Shown here: positions 9,481-64,000 of the stretch, one piece after another
Layout: each line of letters begins with the position of its first letter
Position numbering within the stretch: position 1 is the first letter of the stretch
Origin: Eledone cirrhosa
Taxonomy: Eukaryota
Assembly: GCA_964016885.1 (NCBI GenBank)
Contig: OZ024742.1
Span: forward strand, 224,874,001 to 224,938,000
Length of the DNA: 64,000 bases
Direction of reading: 5' to 3'
Notes under the pieces: model-generated
The model's input: only the letters and a program-made list of their open reading frames with translations
Told to the model about the DNA's origin: nothing
The model's database searches: none
Made by a program: the position numbers and the translations under genes

Positions 9481-9620
9481 GCTGCCAATAAGAAACACAC
9501 GCACCAGTTGCTTTCACTTCAATTTATTATATATTTATAAATTTATAAATTTACAAATTTACAAACCTATAAATTTCTGGTTGGTTGGTTGGTTCCACAA
9601 CCAGATAGTTGTTTATATAT

Positions 9621-9665
9621 AGTCATAGTCCTTTCGTCACACACTCTGTGACCTCTTCAGTGACT
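9621..9665 (-). ncRNA. Minimal hammerhead ribozyme in 5' pLTR of copy A
   Basis: Same sequence as the 5459-5503 motif. Confidence 0.88.
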
Positions 9666-9845
9666 GGGGATTCCTTTCTTCGTTTCTGTGCCTTTTTTTT
9701 CTTCTATCCTACGCCATTTTGTTTCTGTGTGTGTGTGTTGTGTGCGATAACACACACACACACGGAGACAACAACAACACACATCAACAACAACACACAT
9801 CAACAACAACACACATCAACAACAACAACAACACACACGCATTCA

Positions 9846-12410: not shown

Positions 12411-12764
12411 GAGAGCATAGAAATAAAAATAGAATCCACACACAGAAAAGACGCAATGTTTAGGCAAATTACAGAGGCAGTAAGCATAAAAGAATTAAAA
12501 CCAAAATTAAATAGAAAATATGAGTGGAACAGCAACATCACAACTTACAATTAAGGACAAAATGAAAACACACGAAAACACACACACACATAGAACAAAC
12601 AACCAACCAACAATAAATAAATAAATAAATAGAAAAATGAACACAAACACACACAGACACCCGTATGTGGCGCATGCGCAAACTGAGCACACAACACACA
12701 CACAGAAACAAAATGGCGTAGGATAGAAGAAAGGAAAGGCACAGAAACGAAGAAAGGAATCCCC

Positions 12765-12809: not shown

Positions 12810-13221
12810 ATATATAAACAACTATCTGGTTGTGGAACCAACCAACCAGAAATTTATAGGTTTGTAAATTTGTAAATTTATAAATTTATAAATATATAAT
12901 AAATTGAAGTGAAAGCAACTGGTGCGTGTGTTTCTTATTGGCAGCATGACCCTCCCAAAGTATAACAATATCGGTTTCAACACACGATTTCAGATAAAGA
13001 ATCTTGCTAAACAAATTCAGAAACGAAATATATATATATATATATTACATATATATATATACATACATACTCACAAACACACACACACAGTTTCGTGTGT
13101 GTGTTTATATGTATGTATGTATATATATATATACGTAGGAGGTGAGTTTTATTGTAGTACAATAAAGCAATGCAGATATCGGATAAGAAGCACTCTACAG
13201 TTTGTAGGACTGGAGTATACA

Positions 13222-13567
13222 TAATATATAAGATCAAAAGATGGTTAAAAGAGTTCCATGTATTTTATTATGCGCATTTCAAAAACAAATATCATCATGC
13301 AATAACATTTGTGTTTTCATCAGATAAAATAAGAAGACATGATATGAAGGTTAAAAACACTTGTGGATAGTGCAGTTTTAAATCAACATATGTTGATTTA
13401 AAGTTCATATGTTGATTTAAAACTGCACTATCCACAAGTGTTTTTAACCTTCATATCATGTCTTTTTATTTTATCTGATGAAAACACAAATGTTATTGCA
13501 TGATGATATTTGTTTTTGAAATGCGCATAATAAAATACATGGAACTCTTTTAACCATCTTTTGATCT

Positions 13568-13577
<10 letters not shown>
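13222..13577. repeat. Fold-back palindrome with ~170-bp arms
   Basis: The same peptide [19 protein letters not shown] is read on both strands; centre ~13400; abuts (TA)n. Confidence 0.92.
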
Positions 13578-13632
<55 letters not shown>

Positions 13633-15144: not shown

Positions 15145-15600
15145 GTTTGGCAGTATCGGTAGAGCGTCAGACACCATGCTTTGCACCATAGACTTATGGT
15201 CCTTTACGTTCTGAGTTCAAATCCACCGAGGTTAACTTTGCCTTTCATCCTCACGGGATCGATAAAATAAAGCACCAGTAACGTACTGTGTGACGGATCA
15301 CACCTATGCAGGTTTGGCTGGCCTCCTCCAAGCTATATCTCGTTGGAGGTGTCCTGGGTAATTTAATGATAGGGACCCCAGTCCTATCATCTCATTTCTA
15401 CAGCTGAGGAAACTGAAATAAAGTGATTTGCTCAAGGAAACAACACATCACCCGGTCTGAGAATTGAACTCACAACCTTTCGATTGCAAGTCCAATGCTC
15501 TAACCACTAAGTCATGCGCCTTCGCGTACTGGGGTCGATTTAATTAACCTTCCCCTCCCCCAACTTACTGGCCTTGTGCCTATACTAGAAATCATTATTA
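15145..15600 (+). mobile_element. tRNA-derived SINE (family 1) interrupted by a second SINE
   Basis: Box A tggcagtatcgg, box B gagttcaaatcc, core ttgcctttcatcc..gataaaataaag, tail ggccttgtgcc..agaaatcattatta. Confidence 0.85.
15289..15524 (-). mobile_element. tRNA-derived SINE (family 2, CORE-like) nested with a 7-bp TSD
   Basis: Minus strand head tgacttagtggttagagc..gagttcaattc, then ccttgagcaaatcactt; TSD cgtactg at 15282 and 15525. Confidence 0.75.
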
Positions 15601-15610
15601 GTTATAGCCT

Positions 15611-16037
15611 AGGGCGGTGGATTGGCAGTATCGGTAGAGGGTCGGACGCCATGCTTTCCAGCATAGTTACATCCCTTTACGATCTGAGTTCAAATCCCGC
15701 CGAGGTTGACTTTGCCTTTCATCCTTACGGGGTCGATAAAATAAAGTACCAGTAATACACTGGAGTAATTGCTGGCCTTGTGCCAAAAGTGGTGAATTGG
15801 CAGTATCGGTAGAGGGTTGGACGCCATGCTTTCTAGCATAGTTACGTACCTTTGCGGTCTGAGTTCAAATCCCATCGCGTGGATTGGCAGTATCGGTAGA
15901 GGGTCGGACGCCATGCTTTGACGCAAAGAGTTACGGCCTTTGCCATTCTGAGTTCAAATCCCATCGAGGTTAATGTTGCCTTTCATCCTTCCGGGTTCGA
16001 TAAAATAAAGTACCAGTAATCTACTGGGTAATTGCTG
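15611..16037 (+). mobile_element. Three tandem family-1 SINE copies (15611-15790, 15791-15878 truncated, 15879-16037)
   Basis: Repeated ttggcagtatcggtagaggg..gagttcaaatccc heads and gcctttcatcc cores. Confidence 0.88.
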
Positions 16038-16412
16038 GAAAGTCAGGGTGGAGAGACAAGTGCTGTCTTCTAGGAAGTTTGTTGAAAGGTGGGTAAAAGT
16101 GGCGAGTCTGGTCTGAGTGAACGGGCACGCTCTGAGTATGCGGCTGTAGACTAAGGAGTGGAAAACTGAGAGAGGGCTCTTGCCCTGGTAGTCAGGGTGG
16201 CCGTGGTCTTTTGTGTGGTTTTCGCAACGAGTGACCCTCGGAAGTTTCCCCCCTGTTGGGGAATTTTTTGCTGTTTGAATTTTTTTGATATTTCTATCTT
16301 CTTGTTATAACCTTTTTTTACACTGACAAAACCCACTTTGTATCGTCCTGTACCGTTCTGTGCCATCTGTAATGTTTTTCTTCATATTAGCCCTTGTGGC
16401 CAATAAAGAAAC

Positions 16413-28089: not shown

Positions 28090-28282
28090 TAGGGCGGTGG
28101 ATTGGTAGTATCGGTAGAGGGTCGGACGTCATGCTTTGACGCATAGAATTACGGCCCTTTCCATTCTGAGTTCAAATCCCATCGAGGTCAACTTTGCCTT
28201 TCATCCTTACGGGGTCGATAAAATAAAGTACCAGTAATGCACTGGGATAATTGCTAGCCTTGTGCCAAAAGTAAAAATAATT
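28090..28282 (+). mobile_element. Family-1 tRNA-derived SINE
   Basis: Full consensus head, core and tail. Confidence 0.88.
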
Positions 28283-31200
28283 ATTCTTTGAGTCTCAGTC
28301 ATTGATGTTATTTAACTGGAAAGTTTGTTGAAATGAATATCAAGCCGCTACCCTCAGCCTCAGATATCCAGCAAGCATGCCTTTTGAAGTGTTCCAAAAA
28401 GCGGGGCTGGACTAATCTTCTTTAACCATCCTTGGAAACTCTTTGAAATAGTATCTAGTGCGCCTATGACAATCGGGACGACCTTGACTTCATGGCAGTT
28501 CCAAATCCTTTTTACCTCCCCACTTTAAGTCCTGGTATCGGTTAATTTTCTCCCTCTCCTTTTCTTGCACTCTCGTTTCAAATGGGCAGGCTACATTTAC
28601 AATCAGGCACGATCTTTTTTCCTTGTCCAAAACCACCAGGTCAGGCCTATTGTGTTCTAATTTCTTGTCCGTCTGTATCCTAAAATCTCATAGCACCTTC
28701 ACCTGATCGTTTTCTATCACCGACTCTGGCTTATGCTCATACCACTTCTCAGAATGTGGTAAATTATTTACTTTGCATAGATGGCAGTGGATTACCCTGT
28801 CTATCACATCATGTCTCCAGCCTTTATAACATCTGGAACAAAGACACAGCCATTGAGGAAATGAATGCTGACGGGCTAGAACAAGATTTGGTTGATATCC
28901 TGAACTTAGTGGTAGATGAAATGAACAATGATAGTGGAAAACCTATGAACCTAAGATTTGTAGACAGGAAAAAGTTAAAAGAAACAACAGCTAAGGTAAA
29001 TAAAGTCATCCCATACCTTGAGGCAAGGAGCCTTCACCAATGCAACAATATCCTCAAAGCAACCCAAATGCGGTGAGGAGATTACTTGGCATAAAAACGA
29101 GAGGAAACAACAAACAAGAAAGACCAGAACCTTGGTGGAAGAAACGACTGAATGGTCAAATCAAGGAAATGAGAAAAGACATTGAAAAGTTTGAGTCATT
29201 ACTGAATGGGACATTACAAAACATAGACACTAAAGATAGATTGGAAATAAAATACAAAACTAGGGGGAAATAGCTAAATATTATCATAGAGGAACTGAAG
29301 CAACGCATTGTAGCAAAAAGTGCAAAGATTAGGCGGTATGAGAACAGAGTCATTCAGTATAGACAGAACCGCATGTTTGACAACAACCAGAAGATGTTTG
29401 GACAGCTTGAAGGGAAAGAAAGAGGCAACGACGTGATCCCTGAGGCGGAACAGACTAAGACATTCTGGAGAGGAATATGGGAGCAGGATGTTGAACATAA
29501 TGGTCAGGCAGTGTGGATTGAGACAGTTCAAAAGGAGATTAGTAAACAGGCGCACCAACAACCTGATTTGAATATCACAGTTGAAACTCTTAAAGGGCAG
29601 GCCAAAAAACTAACCAACTGGAAATCACCAGGCCCAGATGGTGTGCAAGGATATTGCATAAAAAATATAACATCCCTCCACCCAAAACTGACAGCCATGT
29701 TCAATGACTGCTTGATGTCGGGTGAGGTACCAGAGTGCTTGACAAAAGGTACCACAGTTCTGGTAATGAAAGACCGAATCAAGGGTAATGATGTTACCAA
29801 CTAAAGGCCCATCACATGTCTGTCCGTAATGTGGAAACTGTTAACAAGCATTGTGTCTGAGGAAATCTACCATCACCTCCACATAAACAACTTGCTACCG
29901 GACGAACAGAAAGGATGCCGGAACAAAAGACCCCGTGGTACAAAAGACCAGTTACTTATTGATAAGATGGTAATGAGAAATTGCAAGAGGAGGCACACTG
30001 GTCTTGCCATGGGATTACAAAAAGGCATTCGACATGGTACCTCATTCTTGGATAACCAAAAGTCTAGAGATCTTCAAGGTGGCAGATAACATCAGACAGT
30101 TGTTGAGCAAAAGTATGAAGTCCTGGGAAACAGAGCTAACATCGGGTGGAGAATCCTTGGGAGGCGTGAAGATCAAGAGAGGTATCTTCCAGGGAGATAG
30201 TTTGTCCCCTCTGTTGTTTGTCCTTGCCCTGATACCCCTGACCGTTATATTGAGAAAAGTGAGAGCAGGATACAAGTTGGGAAAAGGAGAGCTTACCATC
30301 AATCACGTCCTCTTCATGGACGATCTTAAACTCTTTGGGAAGAGTGAGAAGGATTTTGATGTACTTGTTGACCCTGTCCGTATTTTCAGCAATGATATAT
30401 GTATGGAATTTGGTATTAATAAGTGTGGAGTCCTAGTGATGAAGAGGGGTAAATTGAGCAGAACCAACGGAATCCAGGTACCAACAGGTGAGATGATAAA
30501 GGAAATTGACACTGAGGAGGGATACAAATATTTAGGTGTTCTGAAGGCAGATGACATCAAGAACAAAAAAATGAAGGAATTGATAAGATCTGAGTACATA
30601 AGGAGAGTAAGGAGCGTATTAAAATCACATCTAAATAGTAGGAATGTCATAATCATTGTTCATTTCATCTACCACTAAGTTTGGGATATCAACCAAATCT
30701 TGTTCTAGCCCGTCAGCATTCATTTCCTCAATGGCCGTATCTTTGTTCCAGATGTTATTTATTTCAGCATTCAGATCATTATCTGCTTCGAATGCTTCCT
30801 CAGGTCTCTCAACCTCTTCACCATCATTTCCCACTGGCTCGTTTGCCTGACATACTCCACTCTCCATTTCCAACTAAATCTCTCTGCTCAGTTCCTCCAG
30901 TTCCAACTCGTTTATCCATCCATTAGTTCTTATTACCCGAGCCTGTCCGGCCAATTTTTGTTCATCTAATTTAACTAGACCAATCTCGTTCCAGATGTTA
31001 TGCATCCGTTTCCTATAGCCTTTTTCCATGGGATTACTCTTCAGGTAGCATTTCATGACAGTTCTATTCAATTCTTTCGTCCAGTTGGTTCTTGTTCCTT
31101 TCCTTCTTCTTCTTCCTCCAACACCAGCAGTATTTGGATGACAGCCAGGTCCCTGCTGCTGGGCCAGGGAGCACTTGCTGGGTGAGAGTCTTTCACATGA

Positions 31201-34424: not shown

Positions 34425-35490
<1,066 letters not shown>

Positions 35491-40974: not shown

Positions 40975-43900
40975 CATCACTATCATCACTATCATCATCA
41001 ACAGCCACTACTACCATCTACTACCACCACCATAATCACTATATCTATTTTCACCACTTCCACCGGCAACACCACTACCTACACCACAACAACCACCACC
41101 ACTTCCGCCATCCCTATTATCACTTCCACCACCAATACAACTACCATACGTACACTACCATACCACTACTACCACCACCACCTCCACCAGCAACACCACT
41201 ACCAACACCACTGCAACAAGCACATCAACCACAACAACCACCACAACCACCACCACCACCACCACCACCAACACAACTACCATACGTACACTACTACCAC
41301 CACCACCTCCACCAGCAACACCACTACCAACACCACTACAACCACCGTCACCACTTACTACCACCACCACCTCCACCAGCAAAACCACTACCAACACCAC
41401 TGCAACAAGCACATCAACCACAACAACCACCACAACCACCACCACCACCACCACCACCAACACAACTACCATACGTACACTACTACCACCACCACCTCCA
41501 CCAGCAACACCACTACCAACACCACTACAACCACCGCCACCACTACTACCACCACCACCCCCACCAGCAACACCAATACCAACACCACTACAACCACCGC
41601 CACCACTACTACCACCACCACCCCCACCAGCAACACCACTACCAACACCACTACAACCACCGCCACCACTACTACCACCACCACCCCCACCAGCAACACC
41701 ACTACCAACACCACTACAACCACCGCCACCACTACTACCACCACCACCCCCACCAGCAACACCACTACCAACACCACTACAACCACCGCCACCACTACTA
41801 CCACCACCACCCCCACCAGCAACACCACTACCAACACCACTACAACCACCGCCACCACTACTACCACCACCACCCCCACCAGCAACACCACTACCAACAC
41901 CACTACAACCACCGCCACCACTACTACCCCCCCCCCCCCCACCAGCAACACCAATACCAACACCACTACAACCACCAACACCAGTACTACCACCGCAACC
42001 ACTACTACCACCACCACCCCCACCAGCAACACCACTACCAACACCACTACAACCACCGCCACCACTACTACCACCACCACCCCCACCAGCAACACCAATA
42101 CCAACACCACTACAACCACCGCCACCACTACTACCACCACCACCTCCACCAGCAAAACCACTACCAACACCACTACAACCACCGTCACCCACACAAGCAA
42201 CACCGCTACCAACACCACTACAACCACCACTACTACCACCACCACCTCCACAGCAACACCACTACAACCACCGCCACCACTACTACCACCACCACCCCCA
42301 CCAGCAACACCAATACCAACACCACTACAACCACCGCCACCACTACTACCACCACCACCTCCACCAGCAACACCGCTACCCACACCACTACAACCACCAC
42401 TACTACCACCACCACCTCCACAGCAACACCACTACAACCACCGCCACCACTACTACCACCGCCACCTCCACCAGCAACACCACTACCAACACCACAACAA
42501 CCACCGCCACCACTACTACCACCACCACCCACACCACAAGACCACTACCAACACCACTACAACCACCGCCACCATCGCCACCACGCCATCACTACTGTCA
42601 CTACCACCAACAACAATGCCACCATTTTCCCTCTCTTCCGTCAGGGTAACATGTAGAGTTTGACAGATTCATTAGGGCAGTATGGTCTACCTTATTTTAG
42701 TTAACGAGTCGTCAAGGCCTTGCTATTTACTTAGCCCCCCCCCCCCTCCCCCAACCAACAACCACCATTGCCATACCCAACACGACTATCATGACCACCA
42801 CTACCACCATCACCACCACTACCACCATCACCAACACTACCAACATCAACACCACTACCACCATCAATACGACTATTATCACCACCACTACCACCATCAC
42901 AATCACTACCATCATTACCACCACTGCCACCACCACCACAATCCACACCACTACTACCATCACCACAACAACAACCACCACCACTACCATCACCACAACA
43001 ACCACCACCACTACCATCACCACAACAACAACCACCACCTCTACCATCACCACGACAACAACCACCATTACCATCACCACACCAACAACCACCACCACTA
43101 CCATCACAACGACAACAACCACCACCACTACCACCACAACAACAACCACCACCACTACCATCACCAAAACAACAACCACCACCACTACCATCACCACAAC
43201 AACAACCACCACCACTACCATCACCAAAACAACAACCACCACCACTACCATCACCACCACCACTACCATCATCACAACAACCACCACTACTACCATCACC
43301 ACAACAACAACCACCACCACTACCATCACCACTACCATCACCACAACAACCACCACCACTACCATCACCACAACAACCACCACCACTACCATCACCACAA
43401 CAACCACCACCACTACCATCACCACAACAACCACCACCACTACCATCACCACAACAACAACCACCACCACTACCATCACCACAACAACAACTACCACCAC
43501 TACCATCACCACAACAACCACCACCACAACAACCACCACCACTACCACCACAACAACAACCACCACCACTACTATCACCACAACAACCACCACCACTACC
43601 ATCACCACAACAACATCCACCACCACTACCAGCACAACAACAACCACCACCACTACCATCACCACAACCACCACCACCACTACCACCACAACAACAACCA
43701 CCACCCCTCCCACCACAACAACAACAACCACCACTACCATCACCACAACAACAACCACCACCACTACCATCACCACAACAACCACCACCACTACCACCAC
43801 AACAACAACCACCACCACTACCATCACCACAACAACAGTCACCACCACTACCATCACCACAACAACCACCACCACCACTACCATCACCACAACAACAACA

Positions 43901-44010
43901 ACCACCGCTACCATCACCACCACTACCATCACCACAACAACAACCACCACCACTACCATCACCACAACAACAACCACCACCATTACCATCACCACAACAA
44001 CCTCCGCCGT
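40975..44010. repeat. (ACC/AAC/ACT)n low-complexity array, including a 63-bp-unit minisatellite at ~41480-42180
   Basis: The unit translates as HHYYHHHPHQQHHYQHHYNHR (21 codons); a second block at 42760-44010 has shorter units. Confidence 0.93.
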
Positions 44011-45372: not shown

Positions 45373-45420
<48 letters not shown>

Positions 45421-45847
45421 AATTACATGAATCAAAGTTCAGTTTAAATCATTTATTTGCTTACAATTGTTTCCTCCAAACCGAGGTTTGGATTCTTCGG
45501 AGCAACTATTTAGTGATTTTTACATACTTGACCTCCTTTTCAACACAAGAGACATATAAAAACATATGTATATATTGACCCACAGGAGGAAACAATTGTA
45601 AGCAAATAAATGATTTAAACTGAACTTTGATTCATGTAATTTCTATATAACTGCTCTGTAAAACAACTGATGTTATTACATTGAGCTATTTATCTTATTG
45701 GTAATAAGATAGTAATGAATTACTGTCTTTCACTATTTAGGGTTTAAAATATATATAACTATATAAGGTTTTATTATATACATAACTAGTATCCTTAATA
45801 CTATATATATATATATATATAAACGTAATCTGAGTGTTTTGAATATT

Positions 45848-46033
45848 AATAATTGTTTCTACATTTGGCACAAGGCCAGCAATTACCCAGTGCATTACTG
45901 GTACTTTATTTTATCGACCCCGTAAGGATGAACGGCAAAGTTAACCTCGACGGGATTTGAACTCAGACCGTAAAGGGACGTAACTATGCTGGAAAGCATG
46001 GCGTCCGACCCTCTACCGATACTGCCAATCCAC
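45848..46033 (-). mobile_element. Family-1 SINE
   Basis: Near-consensus reverse complement. Confidence 0.9.
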
Positions 46034-46229
46034 ATTCGATTCGTTTGGAATTATGCAAACAGCCCCTTTAAGCCATGTCAGTAGAATGACCTTGTCATTC
46101 TTGCTCTTGTGTTGCCATGCAAACAGAACTGCAGACACTAATGTTTCTAGGTATTACCCTTCATCAGTACAGCTCACTGTTCACCTGCCAACTCTCAGAG
46201 CTAATGAAAATATATGATATTTTCTGAAA

Positions 46230-46660: not shown

Positions 46661-47004
46661 TAGATAGATATGTTTCTTTATTTGCCACAAGGGCGCACAA
46701 AAAATGGGACATTACAGGACATGACAGCGGGGGGGTTACATAAAAGTCGTGTAAACTTGAACATTAATAAATAACAATAAACTATATATAAAATAAAATA
46801 ACAAAAGAAATCCCCAATAGAGAGGGGGAGGTGTTACTGCTGGGTTGTTTTACATCCCGTAAATAGAACAACCCCCAATTCCAGGAACACGTCTTCCCTC
46901 TTTTGTCTTCTTCAACCTATAGGTTTATATACAGAGAAGGCGCATTCACTTGGGCCACTTTCGCCACATTCACCCACCTTTCAGCGAATTTACTGGGGTG
47001 CAGC

Positions 47005-47103
<99 letters not shown>

Positions 47104-47140
47104 CTCTCACCTTCCTTCTGAAGTGGTATTTAAAAAGGGG
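46661..47140 (-). mobile_element. Tx1-clade LINE 3' fragment (M1) between GATA repeats
   Basis: ORF2 C-terminus (FKYHFRRKVRVE..RWVNVAKVA) plus 3'UTR ending cccttgtggcaAATAAAg; an internal (CT)n expansion; (GATA)n at 47150-47208. Confidence 0.85.
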
Positions 47141-47155
47141 ACAGATATATAGATT

Positions 47156-47209
<54 letters not shown>

Positions 47210-47874
47210 GAAACAGAAATTCCTATTTGTATTCTGTGCTAGTTAGATGTAAAATCTAAAATGCGGTATAAACCGTTTATTTACAGAAAGTCTTTACATT
47301 CTTGGGACTTTGTTTTCTCACCCTTCGGATTAAAGGAACAACATGTAAATCTCCTTGTTTGTTAACCGGTAAGGGTTTGGATTAGAAGAAACATTATCGC
47401 CACTGGATGTTACATTCTTGAGCTAGCTGTCGGTTTTGATAGTTTTGGTAATGATATTCTGCATGATGGAGGTTATTGATGAAGGGTTGTGTGACAGACG
47501 GATTAATGCTGTTACAAATTTAAGTGTATGTCATGTGTATGGGACACTGATGTAGACAGACAGATAGATAGATTGAGAGATATGTTTCTAGAAACGTAGA
47601 TAGACAGACATAAACAGATAAGACAGATAGATAAACAGCTAGATAGATAGATAGATAGATTTCTTTATTTACCATAAAGGCATAAAAAGAAGGGACAAAT
47701 ACAAAGGGGGAGTTTACATATAATCGAGTAAAAAGGGTGTAACATGAAAATAATCGAAAATAACCTCAAAAGGGAGGGGACGTGATGGGGGTTGCACACA
47801 CCCCCGAAAAAGTGTGCAATCCTTTGCCCGGGGAGCACATGGAGAAGGTGCTCCCCTCTCCTTTACTTCTTTAC

Positions 47875-50800
47875 CTACAGGATGGTATACAGAGAAGGCC
47901 CATTTACACGAGCCATTCTCGCCACTATCACCCACCTTTCATAAAACTGCCTGTGGCCAAGCACCTCTCTCTCCATTCTTATTCTTCTTCCGAAGTGATA
48001 TCGGAAGAAGTAGACCAGACTATGGCCAGAGAGGAAGTTGCCTGACCTCAGACCTTTCAATCGTGTCCACCAAACAACCTCTTTCAACATGGCTATTACG
48101 CACAGAAAAACCGCCTTTGCTTCCTTTGTGAAGAGGGGAGGCGGTTTGATTGTCATCACGGACTCGGCGGTCAATTTAATCGGCGCCACCCGCGACAGCA
48201 GTCGTTCGGCGTAGCCCCACAGATCAGCCACGCCCGGACATTGCACCAATGCGTGCGCAACGGTTTCTTCGTGACGCACGCATCTAGGGAAAATCTTTTT
48301 TGAGGGATCCCTTCCCGGGCGCCCGTGTCTGTAGAGCCTCTCTCGAACGGGTAGAGCCCCCCGGTAGCACTGCCAAGCCAGTGACTTCTGGAAGTTGTCC
48401 ATTGGTCCTGGGCCGAAAGTCCTACCGAACAGGCTGGCCAGTTCGTCTTCTTCCATGTCCAGCGACTCTCCAAGGGTGTCATCGCCCCTGCTAGCCACCA
48501 GCCCTCTATAGAATGATGAGGTGGATTCTCCACCGATGGCCTGGCCCGCTTGCCAGAGAGCCCTGAGCGCCTGAGCACACTCAGTGTGCCAGTCTCCCAG
48601 TTTTCCGGATCTTTGCTTGACCCAGGACTGTAGCTCGGTGAGCGAGACGAGTCTCGGAAAGGCTCGTTTCACGAACGGAGCCCACACCGGTTGACCAGTG
48701 AGGAATACCTGTAGGTGCCGTAGCCTTAATGCGTGCCTACGCATCATCAACCACGGCATCCCCAGCCCTCCTTTCGAAGGTTGTTGGCAGCAGATGGATC
48801 TTCTCACCATAGGAGGACGCTTCTTCCAAAGAAATTGGAAGAGCATGCGTTCCATGGTGGTGAGTGTTTCCTTAGGGCAAGGCACGACAGTCAGGCGGTA
48901 GTAAGTGACGGACGCTATGTAAATGTTCGCCACCTCCGCCCGGCCTTTTAGGGACAGCTTACACTTGGCCCATTTCTGGGTTAGTGCAAACACCTTGTTC
49001 GTAACCTCGTTCCAGTTCTTTTCCACCTGGAGGTCCGGTCCAAACCAGACCCCAAGCAACTTTACCGGGCCCTCCGTCCAGTGTCCGACGACACCGTCAG
49101 GAGGCATCGGTCTGCCTCTCCACGTTCCGAGTTGCAGCCCGATGGATTTTTCCCGGTTCAGTTTCGCTCCTGACAACCTTTCGTACTCCTCCAGTAAGGT
49201 ACCGATCGCCTCGATCTCCGAGTCGGTTGATACCATTACTGTTACGTCATCGGCGTAGGCCGACACCGCTTTGCTCAATCCTGGTTCCAGGGGGATACCC
49301 TGCAACAACTCCAACTTCCTCAGTAAATACGTACAGAAGGGAGGAGAGAGGGCACCCCTGTCGAATGGATCGTGTGATTTCGAACGGCTTCGAAAGGTAG
49401 CCGTTCACCTTGATCCTAGAACAGATGTGGTTGCTATGTAGGGCAGTGATCCAGCCTCTGAAAACAGGACCGAACCCAGCCGCCGCTAGCACCGCATCCA
49501 GGTAACCATGGTCGACCCTATCGAAGGCCTTAGACTGATCCAAGTTGATCAGGGCCCCACCGAAGCAAGGTTTGTTGCCAACCCTCTCTATGATGTATCG
49601 CATGAGGTGGAGGTTATCGTGAATGGACCTGGATGGGATAGCACATGTCTGCGCATCTCCCACCAGGCCACCCACGACAAGCGCCAACCTCTTTGCTAAC
49701 ACCTTGGCCAAAATCTTTAACTCTGTGTTTAGCAGGGTTATGGGCCGAAAATTATTTATATTATCCCCCTTGTTCTCGTCCTTCCTCACCAGCGTGACTA
49801 CGCCCTTGGCTACAGAACAAGGAATTCTCCCGTTCTGCTGCCAATTGCAGTAGACCGCTTCGAGGAGTTCGGAGAAGACCGGCATTGCTAAATAAAGTTC
49901 GTAAGGTATACCATCGAGACCTGGAGATTTGCGTCTGCTGCATTGGCTCAGCGCATCTCCGATCGCATCAGCCGAGATTGGTCCCTCGCAGGACTCTGCC
50001 TCTTCGTTCGAGAGACGCGGCAGGCCGTCGAGGTATGGACCGAAATCCACGCCTCCGCCCGGACCCTCGCCTCCCCCGAACAATCGGGCAAAGTGCCTTT
50101 GAAAGGCCTCGCACATCTGCTTAGGCTCCCGGATCACCCGTCCATCTTCGTCTTGCAACGACCGGATGGTGGATCGATTTCCACTCTTAGCTTCTGTCAC
50201 GCGGGCCCATCCAACGGCTTTGGCCCCCTCATTACCTAGAGCACGTATTTTACTTCGAATGACGCAGCTTTCGTGCTTTGCATCGAAAAACTGGTTCAAG
50301 GCCGTCCTCGATGCCAGCACTCTGGCCACATCTTCGCTCTTGATTGCCTCTTCTAATTTACCTGTTAATTCTTTCTCGTTTCTATTCCTATCGGCAGCTA
50401 ACATCTTGCTATAACTTATTGATTCTGTTCTAATTTCTCTTTTGAGAGATGCCCACCATCGGTTGTTGACGATTGCACCCGTCAACCTCTCCTTAACTAA
50501 TCTGCTAATCCGGTTTCTGTAAGTCTCTTTTGCCGGTAAAGACAAATTAAGTTTCCAGTAACCGGGACCCTGTCTATGTGTTTTCTCGAGATTGACCACG
50601 CAGGTCACTAATTTGTGATCCGTGTAGCCAACCGTGCGCATTTCTGGACAGCTTAATATGTCCCTTTCCTTACTTCTAACTAAGAATCTATCTAAGTACG
50701 ATCTAGATTGACCACTGTGGTTTCTCCAAGTCCAGGTAGGCACAGTTGGAAAATCTAGTCGATATCTATCGACCAAGTTAAAACGGTCGAGTAACCCCTT

Positions 50801-51295
50801 GAGGCTGTTACACCCCCCTCTATTAGGACATGCTCCTGCATAGTCCCAACGTGCATCCAGGATGTCATTCCAATCCCCCGCTAGAAGCAGGGAACGTGAC
50901 GTTCCCAGAAAAGTCTCCAAACGCTGGAAGAAGTCGGGCCGTTCAGCTCCGAAAGGGGAGTAGACGGCGACCAGTCTCAAGGCCGCACTTTCACTACTGC
51001 CAACGTCTAGCACCAACAAACGACCCTCCGGGTCCGAGTGCACAACCTGTACGGCAAGACCCAGGTGTTTTTGCAGCAGTACGACAACCCCACCCCCACC
51101 TCCAGGTTGACAGAGAGATGCATGCACCTCAAAGTCATCGAAGGTGGGGGCCAGCTGCCGCACGACGCTGATTCGAGTCTCACAGATAACCATTACATTT
51201 ATACTACATGACCTGAGGTCATTTAGAAGCTTTGCTTGCTTCCAAGTTGAGCCCAGGCCACGTGCATTCAAACATCCTACTCTTAACACATCCAT
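47875..51295 (-). pseudogene. M2 ORF2 (APE + RT) split by one ~14-nt deletion near 49325
   Basis: ORFs of 682 and 479 aa; CLNARGL, GDWN, SYLDR, TDHK, QGCPLS, AYADD; comparison with M3 shows LTLEP is lost. Confidence 0.93.
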
Positions 51296-51328
51296 GTGGG
51301 CGGCAGAGCCAAAGGAGAGTGTAGAGAC

Positions 51329-53229
51329 CTACCTTTCCGCTTCCCGGGGTTCGGGTTGCACGACTTCCATGGGGTCGGGGGTGTTGGGTGAAGGGGTGTC
51401 TTGTGGTGGTGTGGGGTCGTCAGTGTGTGGTGGGGTTGGGGTGTTTGGAGTTGTGTTGGGGAGGGGAAGGGGAGGGGGAAAGCTTTTTAGTAGGACGCGG
51501 TTTATGGGTTTGACAGAGGGTGGTCCTACGTCCTCCTTAAAATCCTTTTTTAGTTTTTGGTAGAGGTTCATTGGGATCTTTATTAGTTTTAAATGTGGGT
51601 AGTTTTCTGACGAAACAAAGTTTACACCTTCGGTTTGTACCGAAGGATTATTGTTTATGAGTTCATTTAATTTATTATTGTTTCTGTTGATGTAAGTATA
51701 GTGTAATGTCTTTTTTTCCGATGGTGTGAGTGTTTCGAAGAGGGGAGGGGCAGGTTTGGTTTTGTTTGTTGCTGGAGGGGTGTTTTCTGTTTTGTTGGAT
51801 TGTGTTGAGATTTGGGTGGGGGTTGTTTGTCCTTGTGTGTTTTGCACATGTTTTCTTTTTTTCCTTTTAATCTGTCTGAAGGACTCCGTTTCTTCCTCCG
51901 AATTCGTTGGGTTATCTTCAGTGTTGGAGGGAAGAGGTATGTTTGCTGGTAATGTTTCCGTGTTGGTTTTCTTTGTGGGGGAGATGGATGTCACTATGTT
52001 AGACTGTATTGTGTGTTGTGTCTGCGGTGGTTGTGTTGTTTTATTGAGTGAGAGGTTGGGTGGGCCTGTATTTTGTTTTGGGGTAATGTGTTGTGACTGT
52101 TTGTGTTGTGGTGGTGTTGTGGTTTTACTGAGGGACGGGTTGGGTGGGACTGAGTTTTGTTGTTTGTTTATCTGTTGTGGTGGTGGTGGTGGAGCTGGTG
52201 TTGGTAGCAGGGTTTTCTTTTTGTTGAGTTGGGGACAAGCGGCCTTCAGGTGCCCTCTGCCTGCACAGATATGGCAGGACGGCCTTCTCCCCTCCACGCT
52301 AATGTTTATATACCCGTGGTCCTCTAATAGGATTCTGTCGGGTATTTGGGCGATGCGTTCAGGCTTCATTTGTACTACCAGCTCTATACCTGTTCCACTG
52401 AACGCATTGCCTGTGGTTTTCCCAATGGAAATCACGTTGTCATTCACTGGATCGATGAAGCCAGCTATGAGCCAGCAGTAGTCCACATCTGGCATCATTG
52501 CATCCAGCCATATGCGTTGAGTTCTTTTCCCCATATAAGATGGATAAAAGGTGAAATTTTTTGAACGAATCGGTACAAAGCACATTTTTTTGCCGCCGAT
52601 TCGTTCTTCATGATAATTGCTAGGCTTCCATACAGTCTGTCTTTTCTTATGAAAGTGGTTTCATTAAGTACTTCTGTGAGTACTGTTTTGATATCTGCTT
52701 GAGAAGGCTGTTCAGGTTTGTTTGTACTGTTGTTGATGGTCCGAAACTTGACCGTTCGGCTTTCAATGTCTTTCGTGAATTCTTGAGGCATTTTTACCGA
52801 TAAAATACCATTCTCTCCTTCACTTATGTATTGTTTGGCGTCCGTGATCCTTCGTACCACATCTGAAATGTTTTCCGCTATATAAGTCAAAGATTTCTTT
52901 GTTTTCTGTGCAAATGAAATCTTGTCGTCTGCTTTGTTTTCTGATATGGTGTTATTTTCAAATGTTATTTTTGTGTTTGTTGTGTCTTTGTTTGTGTTAT
53001 TAATATTGTCATGCAATTTTTCAAATTTTTTTTTTTCGTTGTTGGAATCCAAGTCCAGATATGTGTTTTCGTCATTTTTTTTTTTTTCCGCAGATTCGTC
53101 TGTTTTTATTTTAATTTTTCCTTCCTTCTCTATGACGTTAGTTGGGAAGGAAGGGGGGACTAAAGCGTGCGAGCTTACAACTCTTACCGCTGTCCCCCCA
53201 CCACTATTTTCGTTCGCTGCGTTTAACAT
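51329..53229 (-). pseudogene. M2 ORF1 (CCHC knuckle) with one frameshift near 52590
   Basis: VEGRRPSCHICAGRGHLKAAC; ORFs of 244 and 418 aa; YPSYMGKR motif resembles P1/P2 ORF1. Confidence 0.85.
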
Positions 53230-53452
53230 TTCTGTTAGACGATTGAAATTTTTTACACAAAATTTTTTAAAACAGGTTTTTCACCTCTAGGAGGGGTAAA
53301 GATGAGCTGACCCACCGCCTGACAGTTCAGACGGAGGGTCAAGCTACACAATTGTATCAAAATTAAGTTTGAACTCACAAAATTTCCTCAATAAATTTGA
53401 ACAAAACTTCTGTGCGAAGTGAATGACATCCACACTGTAGAACAGACGACAG

Positions 53453-56400
53453 CTAGATTAATTAATAGATAGATATATTTCTTTTATTTGCCACTAGGGC
53501 ATCAAAAGTGGGACAAGTACAAAGGGGGGAGTTTACACAAAAAGGCGTCCTCAATAAGGAGAAGGCAATAACAAAATATAAAAATAAAATAAGATATAAC
53601 AAAAAATAAAATTTTTAACAAAGTCCTCAATAGAGAGGAGGCGCCTTGGGGGGTCGCACACACCCCCGAAAAAAGTGTGCAACCCTTCTCCTCAGGAGCA
53701 CAGAGAAGGGGTGCTCCCTTGGTCTTTCATCTTCCTCACCTATAGTCTGATGTAGAGTGAAGGCCCATTCACACGGGCCATTCTCGCCACTTTCACCCAT
53801 CTTTCATAGAAACGGCTGGGGTGCAGCACCTCTCTCTCCATCCTGATCCTTCTTCCGAAATGATATCGGAAGAAACGGACCAGTTGTTGGCCAGAGAGAA
53901 AGGTGCCCGACCTCAGTCCTTTCAGACGCGTCCACCATACAACCTCTTTCGCCATGGCTATTACGCACAGAAACACCGCCTCTGCTTCATCTTTGAAGGG
54001 GGGAGGCGGCTTGATCATTACAATAGACTCGGTGGTCAACCGGATCGGTCCCACCCTTGACAGCAGTTGTTCGACATAGCCCCACAGATCGGCTACGCCC
54101 GAGCAGTGTACTAATGCGTGTGCAACGGTTTCCTCGTCGCACACGCATCTGGGACAGATCTTTTTGGCGGGGTCCCTACCCGGGCGCCCGTGTCTGTAGA
54201 GCCTTTCTCGAACGGGTAAAGCCCCTCGGTAGCACTGCCAGGCCAGGGACTTCTGGAAGTTGTCCATAGGTCCCGGGCTGAATGTCCTACCGAACAGGCT
54301 GGCCAGTTCGTCCTCCTCCATGTCTAGGGCTTCTCCGAGGGCGTCGTCGCACCTGCTGCGTACCAGCCCTCTATAGAATGTTGCGGTGGAGTCTCCACTG
54401 ATAACCGGATCCGCCTGCCAGAGGGCGGTGAGCGCCTGGGCACACTCAGTGTGCCAGGCGCCCAGTTTTCTCGGTCTTTGCTTGACCCAGGATTGCAGCT
54501 CGGTGAGTGAGACGAGTCTGGGAAAGGTTCGTCTCACAAACGAGGCCCACACCGGCTGTCCGGTGAGGAATACGTAGAGGTGCCGTAGCCTTAATGCGTG
54601 TTTACGCATCATTAGCCACGGCATGCCCAGCCCTCCTTTCGAAGGGTGTTGACAGCAGATGGATCTCCTCACCATAGGAGCCCGCCTCTTCCAAAGGAAT
54701 TGGAAGAGCGCGCGCTCCATCTTGGTGAGGGTTTCCCTTGGGCAGGGCACTACGGTCAGGCGGTAGTAGATGACGGACGCTATGTAGGTGTTCGCCACCT
54801 CCGCCCGACCTTTCAGGGATAGTTTGCAACTGGCCCACTTCTGGGTCAGTGCAAACACCCTGTTCGTAACCTCCGCCCAGTTTTTCTCCACCTGGAGGTC
54901 CGGTCCGAACCAGACCCCGAGCAACTTCACCGGGCCCTCCGTCCAGCGTCCGACGACGCCATCGGAGGGCATCGGTCTGCCCCTCCACGTGCCGAGTTGC
55001 AAACCGATCGACTTGTCCCGGTTCAGCTTAGCCCCTGTGAACTTTTCGTACTCCTCCAGTAAGGTGCCGACCGCCTCGATTTCGGAGGCCGTCGACACCA
55101 TTACTGTCACGTCATCGGCGTAGGCCGACACCGCTTTCCGCAATCCCGGTTCCAAAGGGATGCCCTGCAACAACTCCAACTTCCGCAGTAGTGGCTCGAG
55201 AGTCAACACATACAGAAGGGAGGAGAGAGGGCACCCTTGTCGGATGGACCGCGCGATTTTGAACGGCTCCGAGAGGTAGCCGTTCACCTTGACCCTAGAG
55301 CAGATGCGGCTGCTGTGCATAGCAGTGATCCAGCCCCTGAAAACGGGTCCGAAGCCTGCCGCCGCTAGCACCGCATCCAGGTAACCATGGTCGACCCTAT
55401 CGAACGCCTTAGATTGATCCAAGTTGATCAGAGCCCCACCAAAGCCGGGTTCGTTCCCAACCCTCTCTATGATGTATCGCATGAGGTGGAGGTTGTCATG
55501 GATGGACCTGGACGGGATAGCGCATGTCTGCGCATCTCCCACCAGGTTGCCCACGACAAGCGCCAACCTCTTTGCTAGCACCTTGGCCAAAATCTGTAAC
55601 TCTGTATTTAGCAGAGTTATGGGCCTGAAGTTACTTATTTCGTCCCCCTTGTTCTCGTCCTTCCTCACTAGCGTGACTACGCCCTTGGTCACAGTACAGG
55701 GAATTCTCCCGTTCTGTTGCCAGTTGCAGTAGACCGCCTCGAGGAGATCGGGGAACAAGTCCGGCATAGCTAGATATAATTCGTAAGGAAGACCATCGAG
55801 ACCCGGGGATTTGCGTTTGCCGCATTGGCCCAGCACGTCCTCTATCTCAGCGGCCGAAATCGGCTCCTCGCAAGACTTCGCCTCCCTGTCCGAGAGGCGC
55901 GGCAGGCCGTCGAGGTATGGACCGAAGTCCACGTTTCCAACCGGCTCCCCGCCCCTCCCGAACAGTCGGGCAAAGTGCCTTTGAAAGGCCTCACACATCT
56001 GCTTAGGCTCAAGAATCGCCCGTCCATCCAGGTCTCGCAAAGACCGGATGGTGGATTTAGTTCCACTGTTGGCCTCTGTCACGCGGGCCCAGCTAACAGC
56101 TTTGGCCCCCTCGTTCCCTAGAGCACGTATTTTACTTCGGACAACGCAGCCTTCGTGCTTCGCGTCGAAAAACTGGCTCAAAGCCGTTCTCGACGCTAGC
56201 ACTCTGGCCACGTCGCCGCTTCTAATTGCCTCTTCTACTCTATCTATTAGCTCCCTTTCCTTCCTATTCCTATCCGCAGCTAGAACCTTACTAAATTCAA
56301 TCGAGACTACTCTAATCTCTCTCTTTAGAGATACCCACCACCTGCTGTTGACGATCGCTCCAGTCAACCGTTCCTTAACTAACGTACTAATCCGATTCCT

Positions 56401-56625
56401 GTAGGCTCTACTTGCCGGCAAGGACAAGTTGAGCTTCCAGTAACCGGGGCCCTGTCTATGCGTTCTATCAAGGTTGACCATGCAGGTCACCAACTTGTGG
56501 TCTGAATAGCCAACCATGAGCATTTCTGGACAACTTAAAAAGTCCCTGTCCTTATTTCTAACTAAAAATCTATCTAGGTACGATCTAGATGATCCGCTGC
56601 GATTTGACCAAGACCAGGTTGGCAA
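53453..56625 (-). mobile_element. 5'-truncated Tx1-clade LINE (M3)
   Basis: Truncated inside the APE domain at PTWSWSN; flanked by GATA repeats at ~53455-53475 and 56626-56649. Confidence 0.93.
53740..56625 (-). CDS. M3 ORF2, uninterrupted from the APE C-terminus through RT to the stop codon
   Basis: About 960 open codons: SYLDR, SDHK, GPGYWKLN, LDQSKAFD, QGCPLS, AYADD, CPRC..ETVAH..C. Confidence 0.9.
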   Translation of the reverse strand: MPTWSWSNRSGSSRSYLDRFLVRNKDRDFLSCPEMLMVGYSDHKLVTCMVNLDRTHRQGPGYWKLNLSLPASRAYRNRISTLVKERLTGAIVNSRWWVSLKREIRVVSIEFSKVLAADRNRKERELIDRVEEAIRSGDVARVLASRTALSQFFDAKHEGCVVRSKIRALGNEGAKAVSWARVTEANSGTKSTIRSLRDLDGRAILEPKQMCEAFQRHFARLFGRGGEPVGNVDFGPYLDGLPRLSDREAKSCEEPISAAEIEDVLGQCGKRKSPGLDGLPYELYLAMPDLFPDLLEAVYCNWQQNGRIPCTVTKGVVTLVRKDENKGDEISNFRPITLLNTELQILAKVLAKRLALVVGNLVGDAQTCAIPSRSIHDNLHLMRYIIERVGNEPGFGGALINLDQSKAFDRVDHGYLDAVLAAAGFGPVFRGWITAMHSSRICSRVKVNGYLSEPFKIARSIRQGCPLSSLLYVLTLEPLLRKLELLQGIPLEPGLRKAVSAYADDVTVMVSTASEIEAVGTLLEEYEKFTGAKLNRDKSIGLQLGTWRGRPMPSDGVVGRWTEGPVKLLGVWFGPDLQVEKNWAEVTNRVFALTQKWASCKLSLKGRAEVANTYIASVIYYRLTVVPCPRETLTKMERALFQFLWKRRAPMVRRSICCQHPSKGGLGMPWLMMRKHALRLRHLYVFLTGQPVWASFVRRTFPRLVSLTELQSWVKQRPRKLGAWHTECAQALTALWQADPVISGDSTATFYRGLVRSRCDDALGEALDMEEDELASLFGRTFSPGPMDNFQKSLAWQCYRGALPVRERLYRHGRPGRDPAKKICPRCVCDEETVAHALVHCSGVADLWGYVEQLLSRVGPIRLTTESIVMIKPPPPFKDEAEAVFLCVIAMAKEVVWWTRLKGLRSGTFLSGQQLVRFFRYHFGRRIRMEREVLHPSRFYERWVKVARMARVNGPSLYIRL

Positions 56626-58668
56626 GATAGATAGATAGATAGATAGATATCTTTCTTTATTTGCCACAGGGGCGTACAAAAATTGGACATTACAAAACGT
56701 GACGGCGGGGGTTTTACATAAAATCTTTAATAATTGTTTCTACTTTTAGCACAAGGCCAGCAATTAACCAGTGTATTACTGGTACTTTGTTTTATCGTCC
56801 CCGTAAGGATGAAAGGCAAAGTTAACCTTGGCGGGATTTGAACTCAGACCGTAAAGGGACGAAACTCTATGCTTCAAAGCATGGTGTCCGACTCTCTACC
56901 GATACTGCCAATCCAGATGAATAACAATAAACTATATATAAAATAAAACCATTGAAATCCACATTAGGGGGGAACGCTACTGTGGGGTTGTTTTACACCC
57001 CGTGGACAGAACAACCCTCAACACCAGGAACACGTTTTGTAGGTGTTCCCGTCTTTCCTCTGTTTATCTTCCTCAACCTACAGGTTTATATAGTGAAGGC
57101 CCATTCACTCGGTCCATTTTCGCCTCATTCATCCACCTTTCGGCGAATATTTTGAGAGAGAGGTGCTACACCCCTCTCTCCACTCTCACCTTCCTTCTGA
57201 AGTGGTACTTAAAGAAGGGGATGAGTTGTCCGGAGAGAAAGGTGTTTGCCCTCAGTCCTTTTAACCTCGTCCACCATATTACCTCTTTCGCCATAGCCAC
57301 CAGACAGAGGAAAACCGCTTCTCTATCATTCTTAAATGAAGGCGGCGGGGACTCGGCTGACAACTGGATGCGTCCCACACGTGACAGTAGCTGTTCAACA
57401 TAATTCCACAGGTCGGTCACCCCTGGGCACTGAACAATTGCGTTCAGAATGTTTTCGATGTCCTGCTCGCATCTTGGACAGGTCCTTTTGGCAGGATCTC
57501 TGCCAGGGCGTCCATGACTGTAGATTTTGTCTCGAACTGTTAGAGCTCCTCGGTAGCACTGCCAGGCCAGAGACCTCTGGAAGTTATCCATAGGCCCTGG
57601 ACAGAAAGTCCTCCCGAACAGACTGGCCAGTTCGTCCTCCTCGATGCTTAGAGTTTCCCCGACGACGTCCCCTATAGAATGTTGAAGTGGAGTGTCAGCT
57701 GATTGCCGTTTCCGCTTGGTAGTGGGCTGTGAGTGCCTGAAGGCACTCGAGGTGCCAGGCGCCCATTTTCGGTCTTCGCTTGACCCAGGACTGCAGCTCT
57801 GTTAGTGAGAGAAGTTGTGGAAGAGCTCGTCTCACAAATGACAGGAATCGCCGGTCAGGAATACCTGGAGATGACGTAGCCTCAGCGCGTGTTTGCCCAG
57901 CCTTCCGTTATAAGGGTGTTGACAGCAGATGGATCTCCTCACCAATGGAGCCTGTTTCTTCCAGAGGAACTTGAAGAGTAGGCGTTCCATTTTGGTGAGG
58001 TATTCGCGGGGACAAGGCACGACTGTCAAGCGGTAGTAGATGACGGACGCTATGTAAGTGTTCGCCACCTCCGCTTGACCTTTCAAGGAGAGTTTGCACT
58101 CAGCCCACTTCTGGGTGAGTGCAAACACCTTCACCGTGACCTCGTTCCAGTTCTTGTCCACCTGGAGGTCTGGACCAAACCAGACCCTGAGCAATTTCAC
58201 CGGTCCTTCCGTCCAGCATCCAACGACACTGTCGGAAGGCATGGGTTTGCCTCTCCATGTGCCGAGTTGCAAACCGACAGACTTGTTTGGGTTTAGTCTT
58301 GCTCCTGTCAACGTTTCGTATTCTGTAATAGGTTCCGATTACCCCGATTTCCGAGGTTTTCGACACCATTACGGTTACGTCGTCGGCACAGGCCGACGCT
58401 GCTTTCCGCAGCCCTGGTTCGATCGGGATGCCCTGCAACAGCTCCAACTTCCGCAGTAATGGCTCGAGAGTCGTGGTAGGCCATCGAGGTAGGAACTGAA
58501 GTCCATCACCTCGCTCGACGTACCACTTTGCCCAAACAGTTGTGCAAATGCTGCTGGAAGGCCGTGCACATCTGCTTGGATTCAAGTAGAATGCGTCCAT
58601 CTTTGTCTTGAAAAGACCGAATTGTGGATTTGTTGCCACTTTTCGCCTCTGCCACTCGGACCCAGCTA
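56626..58668 (-). mobile_element. Decayed, internally deleted Tx1-clade LINE (M4) with a SINE in its 3'UTR
   Basis: Fragments ACADDV, GLQLGTW, MDNFQRSLAWQCY; GATA repeats at 56626-56649 and 58670-58688. Confidence 0.88.
56728..56915 (-). mobile_element. Family-1 SINE nested in M4
   Basis: Reverse-complement consensus. Confidence 0.88.
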
Positions 58669-58855
58669 AATAGATAGATAGATAGATTATTGATGCTGTT
58701 TTTTCTTCAAACCACAATCAGTACCACCATTACTATTGCCAATATCACCACCATTATCACCATTATCATTACTGTCATCATAATTGTCACCATAATTATC
58801 ACAAAGATTACTGAAAAAAGTGTTTATTATTTTTTCAATTCACATTCGCATTTCT

Positions 58856-62977: not shown

Positions 62978-64000
62978 GTTAGTGTTATTGATGTTGGTGG
63001 TGATGGTAGTGGTGGTGTTGTGCTTATCATAGCTGGTTGTGTTAGTGTTATTGATGTTGGTGGTGATGGTGGTGGTGGTGTTGTGCTTATCATAGCTGGT
63101 TGTGTTAGTGTTATTGATGTTGGTGGTGATGGTGGTGGTGGTGTTGTGCTTATCATAGCTGGTTGTGTTAGTGTTATTGATGTTGGTGGTGATGGTGGTG
63201 GTGGTGTTGTGCTTATCATAGCTGGTTGTGTTAGTGTTATTGATGTTGGTGGTGATGGTGGTGGTGGTGTTGTGCTTATCATAGCTGGTTGTGTTAGTGT
63301 TATTGATGTTGGTGGTGATGGTGGTGGTGGTGTTGTGCTTATCATAGCTGGTTGTGTTAGTGTTATTGATGTTGGTGGTGATGGTGGTGGTGGTGTTGTG
63401 CTTATCATAGCTGGTTGTGTTAGTGTTATTGATGTTGGTGGTGATGGTGGTGGTGGTGTTGTGCTTATCATAGCTGGTTGTGTTAGTGTTATTGATGTTG
63501 GTGGTGATGGTGGTGGTGGTGTTGTGCTTATCATAGCTGGTTGTGTTAGTGTTATTGATGTTGGTGGTGATGGTGGTGGTGGTGTTGTGCTTATCATAGC
63601 TGGTTGTGTTAGTGTTATTGATGTTGGTGGTGATGGTGGTGGTGGTGTTGTGCTTATCATAGCTGGTTGTGTTAGTGTTATTGATGTTGGTGGTGATGGT
63701 GGTGGTGGTGTTGTGCTTATCATAGCTGGTTGTGTTAGTGTTATTGATGTTGGTGGTGATGGTGGTGGTGGTGTTGTGCTTATCATAGCTGGTTGTGTTA
63801 GTGTTATTGATGTTGGTGGTGATGGTGGTGGTGGTGTTGTGCTTATCATAGCTGGTTGTGTTAGTGTTATTGATGTTGGTGGTGATGGTGGTGGTGGTGT
63901 TGTGCTTATCATAGCTGGTTGTGTTAGTGTTATTGATGTTGGTGGTGATGGTGGTGGTGGTGTTGTGCTTATCATAGCTGGTTGTGTTAGTGTTATTGAT
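62978..64000. repeat. Homogeneous 63-bp minisatellite (at least 16 copies, runs off the window)
   Basis: Unit gttagtgttattgatgttggtggtgatggtggtggtggtgttgtgcttatcatagctggttgt; one minus frame is open (MISTTPPPPSPPTSITLTQPA). Confidence 0.97.

Follow-up and report, generated by a model that had tools for sequence, protein, structure and literature searches.

LINE families stacked in (TCTA)n arrays of Eledone cirrhosa: a microsatellite-targeting clade of the L1/Tx1 group with a probable change of target from (ATT)n

Elements of the Tx1 clade of retrotransposons without long terminal repeats (non-LTR elements) carry two open reading frames (ORFs), the first of which has a CCHC zinc knuckle. Among elements with an APE endonuclease, the available text of two sources assigns sequence-specific insertion to the Tx1 and R1 clades only (PMC13295347; PMC4640811). 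Described microsatellite-specific elements include Kibi and Koshi of teleost fish, directed at (TC)n and (TTC)n, and crocodilian Tx1 families directed at (TTCC)n/(TTTC)n (PMC4494074; PMC3812793), along with the non-LTR elements Dong in (TAA)n, Waldo in (ACAY)n and Mino in (AC)n (PMC3812793). How APE-carrying long interspersed nuclear elements (LINEs) choose and change such targets has been called poorly understood (PMC3812793). Here we describe a 64,000 nt stretch of the mollusc Eledone cirrhosa (GCA_964016885.1, OZ024742.1, 224,874,001-224,938,000, forward strand; hereafter the window), AT- and microsatellite-rich DNA from a surveyed genome of 3.0 Gb, in which four LINE copies, M1-M4, all lie on the minus strand within 46671-58667 with sense-strand (TCTA)n at both ends of each. 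We consider it reasonably probable that they are members of a single L1/Tx1-group clade, each from a different family, whose insertions take one orientation at the word TC|TATCT, duplicate about 19 nt and add no tail of their own, that APE likely brings this about by nicking the GATA strand, and that this clade likely shifted from an (ATT)n-targeting ancestor.

An earlier note, made from the sequence of the window, had placed all four copies on the minus strand with GATA repeats on both sides, including the 5' truncation points, and the window junctions confirm this. A repeat does stand at each end of every copy, but there are six separate arrays rather than eight, as M4/M3 and M3/M2 share one each. 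M4, M3 and M2 follow head to tail with repeat spacers of 25 nt and 15 nt, and M1 lies 400 nt further on. The window holds 16 plus-strand GATA-type runs of at least 8 nt, nine of them at or just behind the ends of M1-M4, as is every run of at least 12 nt. The copies belong to four different families (ORF2 identity 84% for M2/M3 and 66% for M4/M2). Three relatives, P0, P1 and P2, are bounded by (ATT)n on the plus strand; the description of their ORF2 as closely similar to that of the stack was overstated, the M1-M4 families being 64-68% identical to P1/P2 in ORF2 and 54-60% in APE.

All seven window elements end in a 17-nt motif with AATAAA; the genome contains 41,204 matches to this motif, whereas its reversed control gives 123. 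P1-type 3' ends number 9,161 genome-wide, of which 8,152 run on into ATTATTA and one into TATCTAT. M2-type ends number at least 1,563 (the pattern omits variants with G at one far position); TATCTAT follows 1,364 and ATTATTA one, which is a P1-like end (L341). There are 810 M4/M1-type 3' ends, mostly TATCT-led among the 100 matches listed. The partition of close relatives between (ATT)n and (TCTA)n that the earlier note had proposed is thus borne out by genome-wide junctions. The 5' ends agree: a TCTA word lay within 25 nt at 30 of 30 M2-family loci and an ATT word at none, while an ATT word lay there at 28 of 30 P1-family loci and a TCTA word at none, one of the misses (L239) having been left unoriented by the script. 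The window's own copy is counted in each set of 30, as are some tandem neighbours. The background per 25 nt is 0.84% for the TCTA word and 1.19% for the ATT word (200 kb in 20 evenly placed stretches). With best matches that are 99-100% identical, the M2 family is young, and an ORF2 frame of at least 1,140 aa was present in 15 of 40 fetched M2-family loci.

The first 100 motif matches on contig C1, fetched with 6.6 kb upstream, served as an unselected sample. Ninety-one were assigned to a group, the other nine (short remnants or chance matches) being dropped before the counts; 80 yielded an ORF2 chain and 71 entered a tree. Of the 38 ATT-group copies, 33 had ATT at the 3' flank; TCTA stood there in 33 of the 45 TCTA-clade copies and the minisatellite in all 8 copies of a nested family described below, with no cross-overs. 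The misses consisted for the most part of (TA)n, (TC)n and further short repeats, or of very short runs. At 5' truncation points the respective repeat was found in 15 of 21 TCTA-clade and 7 of 15 ATT-group copies, and none crossed. As a separate observation, five unlinked insertions (L036/L243, L046/L252, L054, L089, L349) had the same non-LINE sequence upstream of their TCTA array, so that a dispersed repeat bearing such an array is a frequent landing site.

Twenty M2-family copies were hand-picked for odd 3' flanks and, with 13 P1-family copies picked likewise, made up 33 loci. A duplication of 13-21 nt was found in 16 of the 20 (15 exact, one with one mismatch), seven of them at 19 nt; of the remainder one had a partial duplication and three had none. 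These duplications begin directly after AATAAA plus 6 nt and reach unique DNA, neither repeat units nor poly(A) having been added. No 3' poly(A) was found among the 100 M2-type and 100 P1-type end matches listed. Since the M2-family duplications run into unique DNA, (TCTA)n is the insertion target and not a tail, which supports the earlier preference for target choice over a mere tail. In 7 of 20 full-length M2-family copies the duplication could be read beyond pure repeat, while no clear duplication was found in the flanks of M1. The insertion site is the 7-nt word TC|TATCT, most often within (TCTA)n, rather than a whole array; at L355, L359, L360 and L185 the word stands alone amid otherwise unrelated DNA. 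AATAAA lies 6-7 nt before the junction and the junctions are exact. Of 6 non-array sites, 4 had kept the TC preceding the duplication, compared with 57 of 970 (5.9%) in the background (p = 1.6e-4). This points to the endonuclease, since TC lies on that side of the nick which RNA pairing cannot reach.

ORF2 phylogeny was examined with FastTree (30 rows, with outgroups) and with a more careful tree of 15 rows. ATT-flanked and TCTA-flanked copies separated completely in the 71-copy ORF2 tree, so that flank type tracks ORF2 phylogeny, the relationship on which the earlier note had made its reading depend. The TCTA clade was monophyletic with support of 99/100 in the 15-row tree with outgroups, and a single clade of the ATT rows plus P0001 was rejected (approximately unbiased test, p-AU 0.006). 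In whole-ORF2 and reverse transcriptase (RT) FastTree analyses the TCTA clade adjoins the P2 group; the APE-only and C-terminal trees differ. An insert before the C-terminal Cys motif, reported in the earlier note for M2-M4, was found as RPGR in all three (M3 54186-54175, M4 57510-57499; M2 in Table 1) and was absent in P1/P2. Its presence follows the ATT/TCTA split in every well-covered row (four rows were garbled or gapped there), and it is absent from the outgroups, P0001 and an argonaut protein. Judged from these alignments, the 4-aa insert is a derived mark of the TCTA clade. It had been called diagnostic, which holds for the clade but not for the target, because the minisatellite family has a version too. 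As a specificity determinant the insert found no support, given this SLGR version and its distance from APE. The tree placement, together with outgroups lacking the insert, makes it probable that the TCTA clade arose within the ATT group, that is, that the change ran from ATT to TCTA. The earlier reading of a target switch is supported, while the supposed sister lineage probably arose inside the ATT group. The closest named protein match is from Argonauta hians (67% identity over RT). The nearest outgroups (P0003, P0011, P0025, P0138) are ORF2 proteins of about 40% identity in clusters of 350-730 members, another high-copy young family.

The predicted structure of the M2 APE domain (pLDDT 92.8) resembles the L1 endonuclease (TM 0.82) and has S194 in a hairpin loop. 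M2 T189 and S199 correspond to the L1 hairpin anchors T192 and S202 (PMC1950540), so that residue 194 falls at the position of the L1 P197 tip. Of 17 ATT-group rows, 15 have Ile there (one has Val, one a gap), and all 19 rows of the TCTA clade and minisatellite family have Ser. The hairpin comparison with P1/P2 that had been proposed as a check hence separates Ile (ATT) from Ser (TCTA) at the tip, but the minisatellite family also has Ser; the tip alone was rejected as the determinant, being insufficient where S194 is kept with a different target. Clade-diagnostic residues number 24, with 10 among 235 positions in APE versus 14 among 910 elsewhere (p 0.018), and the catalytic E, D, N, D and D are invariant across 52 rows. 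Grafting the hairpin loop alters L1 nicking, and loop grafting between distant enzymes has given partial answers only (PMC1950540). The cause of targeting would thus lie in the APE domain, with I194S likely one contributor among the 10 clade-diagnostic APE residues and not the sole cause. The families were also put forward as a natural pair for mapping APE specificity: target-split families are real, but that APE causes the split is something we infer. Two TCTA-clade copies, L135 and L159, sit in (TCTG)n-rich arrays, and L135 has Tyr at hairpin position 193.

A family that lies inside the TCTA clade has another target (L091, L109-L114, L142; 273 ends). All 100 of its end matches listed (of the 273) run into one minisatellite unit, and insertion is at a single position of a minisatellite (about 60-72 nt) that is part of a dispersed repeat. 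The bodies of this family are 98-99% identical, whereas the flanking units of the dispersed copies are 73-82% identical, and because the units are more diverged than the bodies, the minisatellite is older target DNA. The unit contains TC|TATAT, near the TCTA-clade word TC|TATCT. That an APE 77-79% identical to that of the TCTA families should be specific over 20 nt suggests another layer, the simplest candidate being pairing by read-through RNA. At L142 a donor-type unit stands 5' and a diverged unit 3', as if the unit came along with the element.

In the mechanism we favour, the GATA strand would be nicked by APE at either AGAT^AGA or AGATA^GA, two readings that differ by one ambiguous base. 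The RNA, extending a few bases beyond AATAAA into the target repeat, would pair with the freed 3' end of the nicked strand, reverse transcription would start at the exact end of the element, and the duplication would arise from a second nick at a distance of about 19 nt. Each insertion would copy the target word and so allow new copies beside old ones; the stacking of M1-M4 would follow from this duplication of the word at every insertion.

Several results weigh against this account. The ATT group is monophyletic in the APE-only (0.87) and C-terminal (0.84) trees, and the approximately unbiased result leans on a long-branch argonaut protein of unseen target, so that the direction of the change is only probable. 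The repeat is missing at 6 of 21 TCTA-clade and 8 of 15 ATT-group truncation points, some of which are internal deletions or later insertions. The upstream TC test comprises six hand-picked sites with two exceptions (L348, L353), and a readable duplication was present in only 1 of 13 odd-flank P1-family copies (L365, 16 nt, TT|ATT). The diagnostic residues are confounded with ancestry, the ATT/TCTA split being one branch, and APE evolves faster than RT anyway. Finally, S194 is retained in the minisatellite family, and its APE is 77-79% identical to those of the TCTA families, yet its target is long and different.

The last point leads to the strongest alternative, that choice by the RNA dominates: a loose endonuclease would cut at T^A steps, only sites that pair with target bases at the RNA 3' end would prime, and the target would be inherited from the landing site of the founder. 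Exact junctions only 6-7 nt from AATAAA without poly(A) would suit this, as would the target of more than 20 nt in the nested family (100 matches listed of 273 ends) despite its similar APE, and the RNA-end requirements of R1Bm, whose RNA needs downstream target sequence, and SART1, whose accuracy gains from a target-like end (PMC7265360). We nevertheless regard it as possible but rather unlikely, as the upstream bases are kept at 4 of 6 non-array sites, diagnostic changes are in excess in APE, and M2-family copies reach odd sites while 1,364 ends share one word and none is at ATT. A repeat tail made by the element, as in CR1/RTE, with 5' repeats acquired by stacking on older copies, would fit the many 5' flanks that are the 3' end of another copy, and since nearly all M2 ends listed start with T(C/A)TATCT a few bases may be element-encoded. 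Duplications that pass from the element end into unique DNA without extra units (L353, L355, L359, L360) largely refute such a tail, and most 5' arrays lie in unrelated DNA, leaving it very improbable. Random insertion with passive survival or accumulation near microsatellites, as proposed for Drosophila Waldo (PMC3812793), would find ample room in so microsatellite-rich a genome, but is refuted by the genome-wide junction counts and deserves next to no credence, given fixed strand and phase, a family-specific repeat with one cross-over each in more than 1,300 and more than 8,100 ends of copies about 99% identical, and a background in which (TA)n is about 45 times commoner than (TCTA)3+ (508 vs 11) yet forms a minority of the flanks listed.

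Beyond endonuclease-led targeting of TC|TATCT, we tentatively raise a broader possibility, that the more than 41,000 3' ends represent one young radiation with at least two target switches, from ATT to TCTA and then to the minisatellite. A small number of APE residues, the hairpin tip among them, may have brought about the first, and target bases at the RNA 3' end the second, which would amount to a two-layer, partly RNA-programmable code.

Coordinates are collected in Table 1. M2 comprises a 5' untranslated region (UTR), ORF1 (53229-51329), ORF2 (51295-47875) and a 3' UTR that ends in AATAAA plus 6 nt without poly(A). Its ORF1 is frameshifted and carries the CCHC knuckle at 52276-52235, while ORF2, with APE, RT and a zf-RVT-like end, has a frameshift near 49300. 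In M3, ORF2 is open for 960 aa (56624-53740) with RT and a zf-RVT-like region, and about 680 nt have been lost from within M4 near 58463.

Table 1. Positions of the LINE copies, their parts and their flanking repeats in the window
Feature	Position	Strand	Remarks
P0	16037..16413	+	3' fragment of ATT-group relative
P1	16453..22418	+	Full-length ATT-group relative; flanks (ATT)13 and (ATT)21
P2	22482..28062	+	Full-length, decayed ATT-group relative; followed by (ATT)9
Short TCTA run	46661..46670	-	Behind M1
M1	46671..47141	-	3' fragment (ORF2 end and 3' UTR); (GA)n expansion 47007-47101; M1 bounds approximate
(TCTA)n array	47143..47209	-	At M1 5' truncation point
(TCTA)n and decayed TCTA/TCTG array	47553..47657	-	Behind M2
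M2	47658..53460	-	Full-length 5.8-kb member of young family
RPGR insert of M2	48310..48321	-	4 aa; before first Cys pair of C-terminal zinc-binding region
M2 APE endonuclease domain	50576..51295	-	Hairpin loop T189-S199 at 50731-50699, tip S194
Short TCTA run	53461..53475	-	M3 3' end to M2 5' end
M3	53476..56624	-	5' truncation inside APE domain
(TCTA)6	56625..56649	-	Common to M4 3' end and M3 5' truncation point
M4	56650..58667	-	Decayed, 5'-truncated TCTA-clade LINE
SINE copy	56727..56918	-	Within M4 3' UTR
(TCTA)n	58670..58685	-	At M4 5' truncation point

A very abundant short interspersed nuclear element (SINE) of about 190 nt with an ATT end occurs in the window at 15591-16038, 28093-28285, 45846-46035, within M4 and elsewhere. 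ATT-group LINEs often lie in its tail or are closely followed by a copy, and there is a loose resemblance between its last 30 nt and the LINE 3' end (GGCCTTGTGCC...GAAAC-ATT). Elsewhere in the window, 5690-8581 and 9745-12655 are two inverted 2.9-kb copies, 98% identical, of an RT gene whose C-terminal part is nuclease-like (ORF 9609-12410, 933 aa), which we take to resemble a Penelope-like element. A 2.8-kb (ACC)-rich low-complexity array with several open frames (41162-43995) could encode a Thr/Pro-rich, mucin-like exon. A 63-nt minisatellite (62978-64000; 99% matches, three open frames) continues past the window end, and self-complementary (palindromic) stretches of 170-660 nt resembling miniature inverted-repeat transposable elements lie at 1-663, 990-1277, 1525-1991, 13216-13582, 34532-34819 and 45418-45644.

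As to classification, M2 ORF2 has an N-terminal APE (PF03372) followed by RT (PF00078), and target-site duplications and 5' truncation are present, as in APE-type non-LTR elements of the L1 group. Among solved structures, human L1 ORF2p was matched at E 1.9e-46 and R2 at E 4e-20, L1 and R2 being the only LINE proteins available there. M2 and P1 also have a CX2CX4HX4C knuckle in ORF1, a Tx1-type feature, and the sequence-specific insertion of the M2 and P1 families is likewise of Tx1 type. Membership of the Tx1 clade is likely on ORF structure and target-specific insertion, rather than on placement by tree. No match named Tx1 appeared in the protein searches, the nearest RT matches being turtle, fish and argonaut proteins. 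The poly(A) tail of the narrow, vertebrate-type L1 clade was absent among the ends listed. The Kibi/Koshi type of target does not apply either, the word being TATCTAT, with (TC)n after only a few M2-type ends among the matches listed.

These intact, recently active families offer three target types, endonucleases differing by 21-40% and hundreds to thousands of junctions each. Swaps of APE, loop or RNA end between near relatives become feasible, which likely makes them a handy set for tests of target switching. Tens of thousands of sites in this genome are GATA or ATT arrays that these elements have interrupted and duplicated.

A 2026 annotation of O. vulgaris reports 13 recently active L1-Tx1 families and, in its available text, does not use the word 'target' (PMC13282606). 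A GATA/TCTA target is not named in the available text of PMC4494074 ('GATA' 0 times) or PMC3812793 (twice, in a mutation-rate table), and no GATA-specific Tx1 was found in searches confined to the text of papers, as distinct from the repeat catalogues Repbase and Dfam. The targets of further Tx1 families are given in Fig. 3 of PMC4494074, and a GATA target may be among them. Human LINE-1 ORF2p and the L1 endonuclease (PDB 8sxt, 1vyb, 7n8s) are the best match in sequence and fold and share duplications below about 21 nt; a T^A nick like theirs would fit one of our two readings. They differ in that the present elements have no poly(A), a CCHC-knuckle ORF1 without a Pfam match and a strict repeat target. 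Dong has the TAA/ATT repeat in common with the P group; it is an R4-clade element with a restriction-like endonuclease, and Waldo and Mino differ in belonging to the R1 clade. Dong is listed as Dong-R4 in PMC13282606. Tx1L of Xenopus, which inserts in Tx1D, and crocodilian Tx1-Mar (PMC4494074) aim at a site in another repeat, like the nested family, which differs in lying within a microsatellite-targeting clade; between the hairpin anchors there are 9 residues here, as in L1, against 11 in Tx1L (PMC1950540). Closest are Kibi, Koshi and the crocodilian Tx1 families, likewise APE-type elements with one microsatellite class each, in which related families divide related repeats, although theirs are pyrimidine tracts and those here are the AT-rich (TCTA)n and (ATT)n of a mollusc host. 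Since microsatellite-targeting Tx1 elements are already known, what appears to be new here is (TCTA)n as their target.

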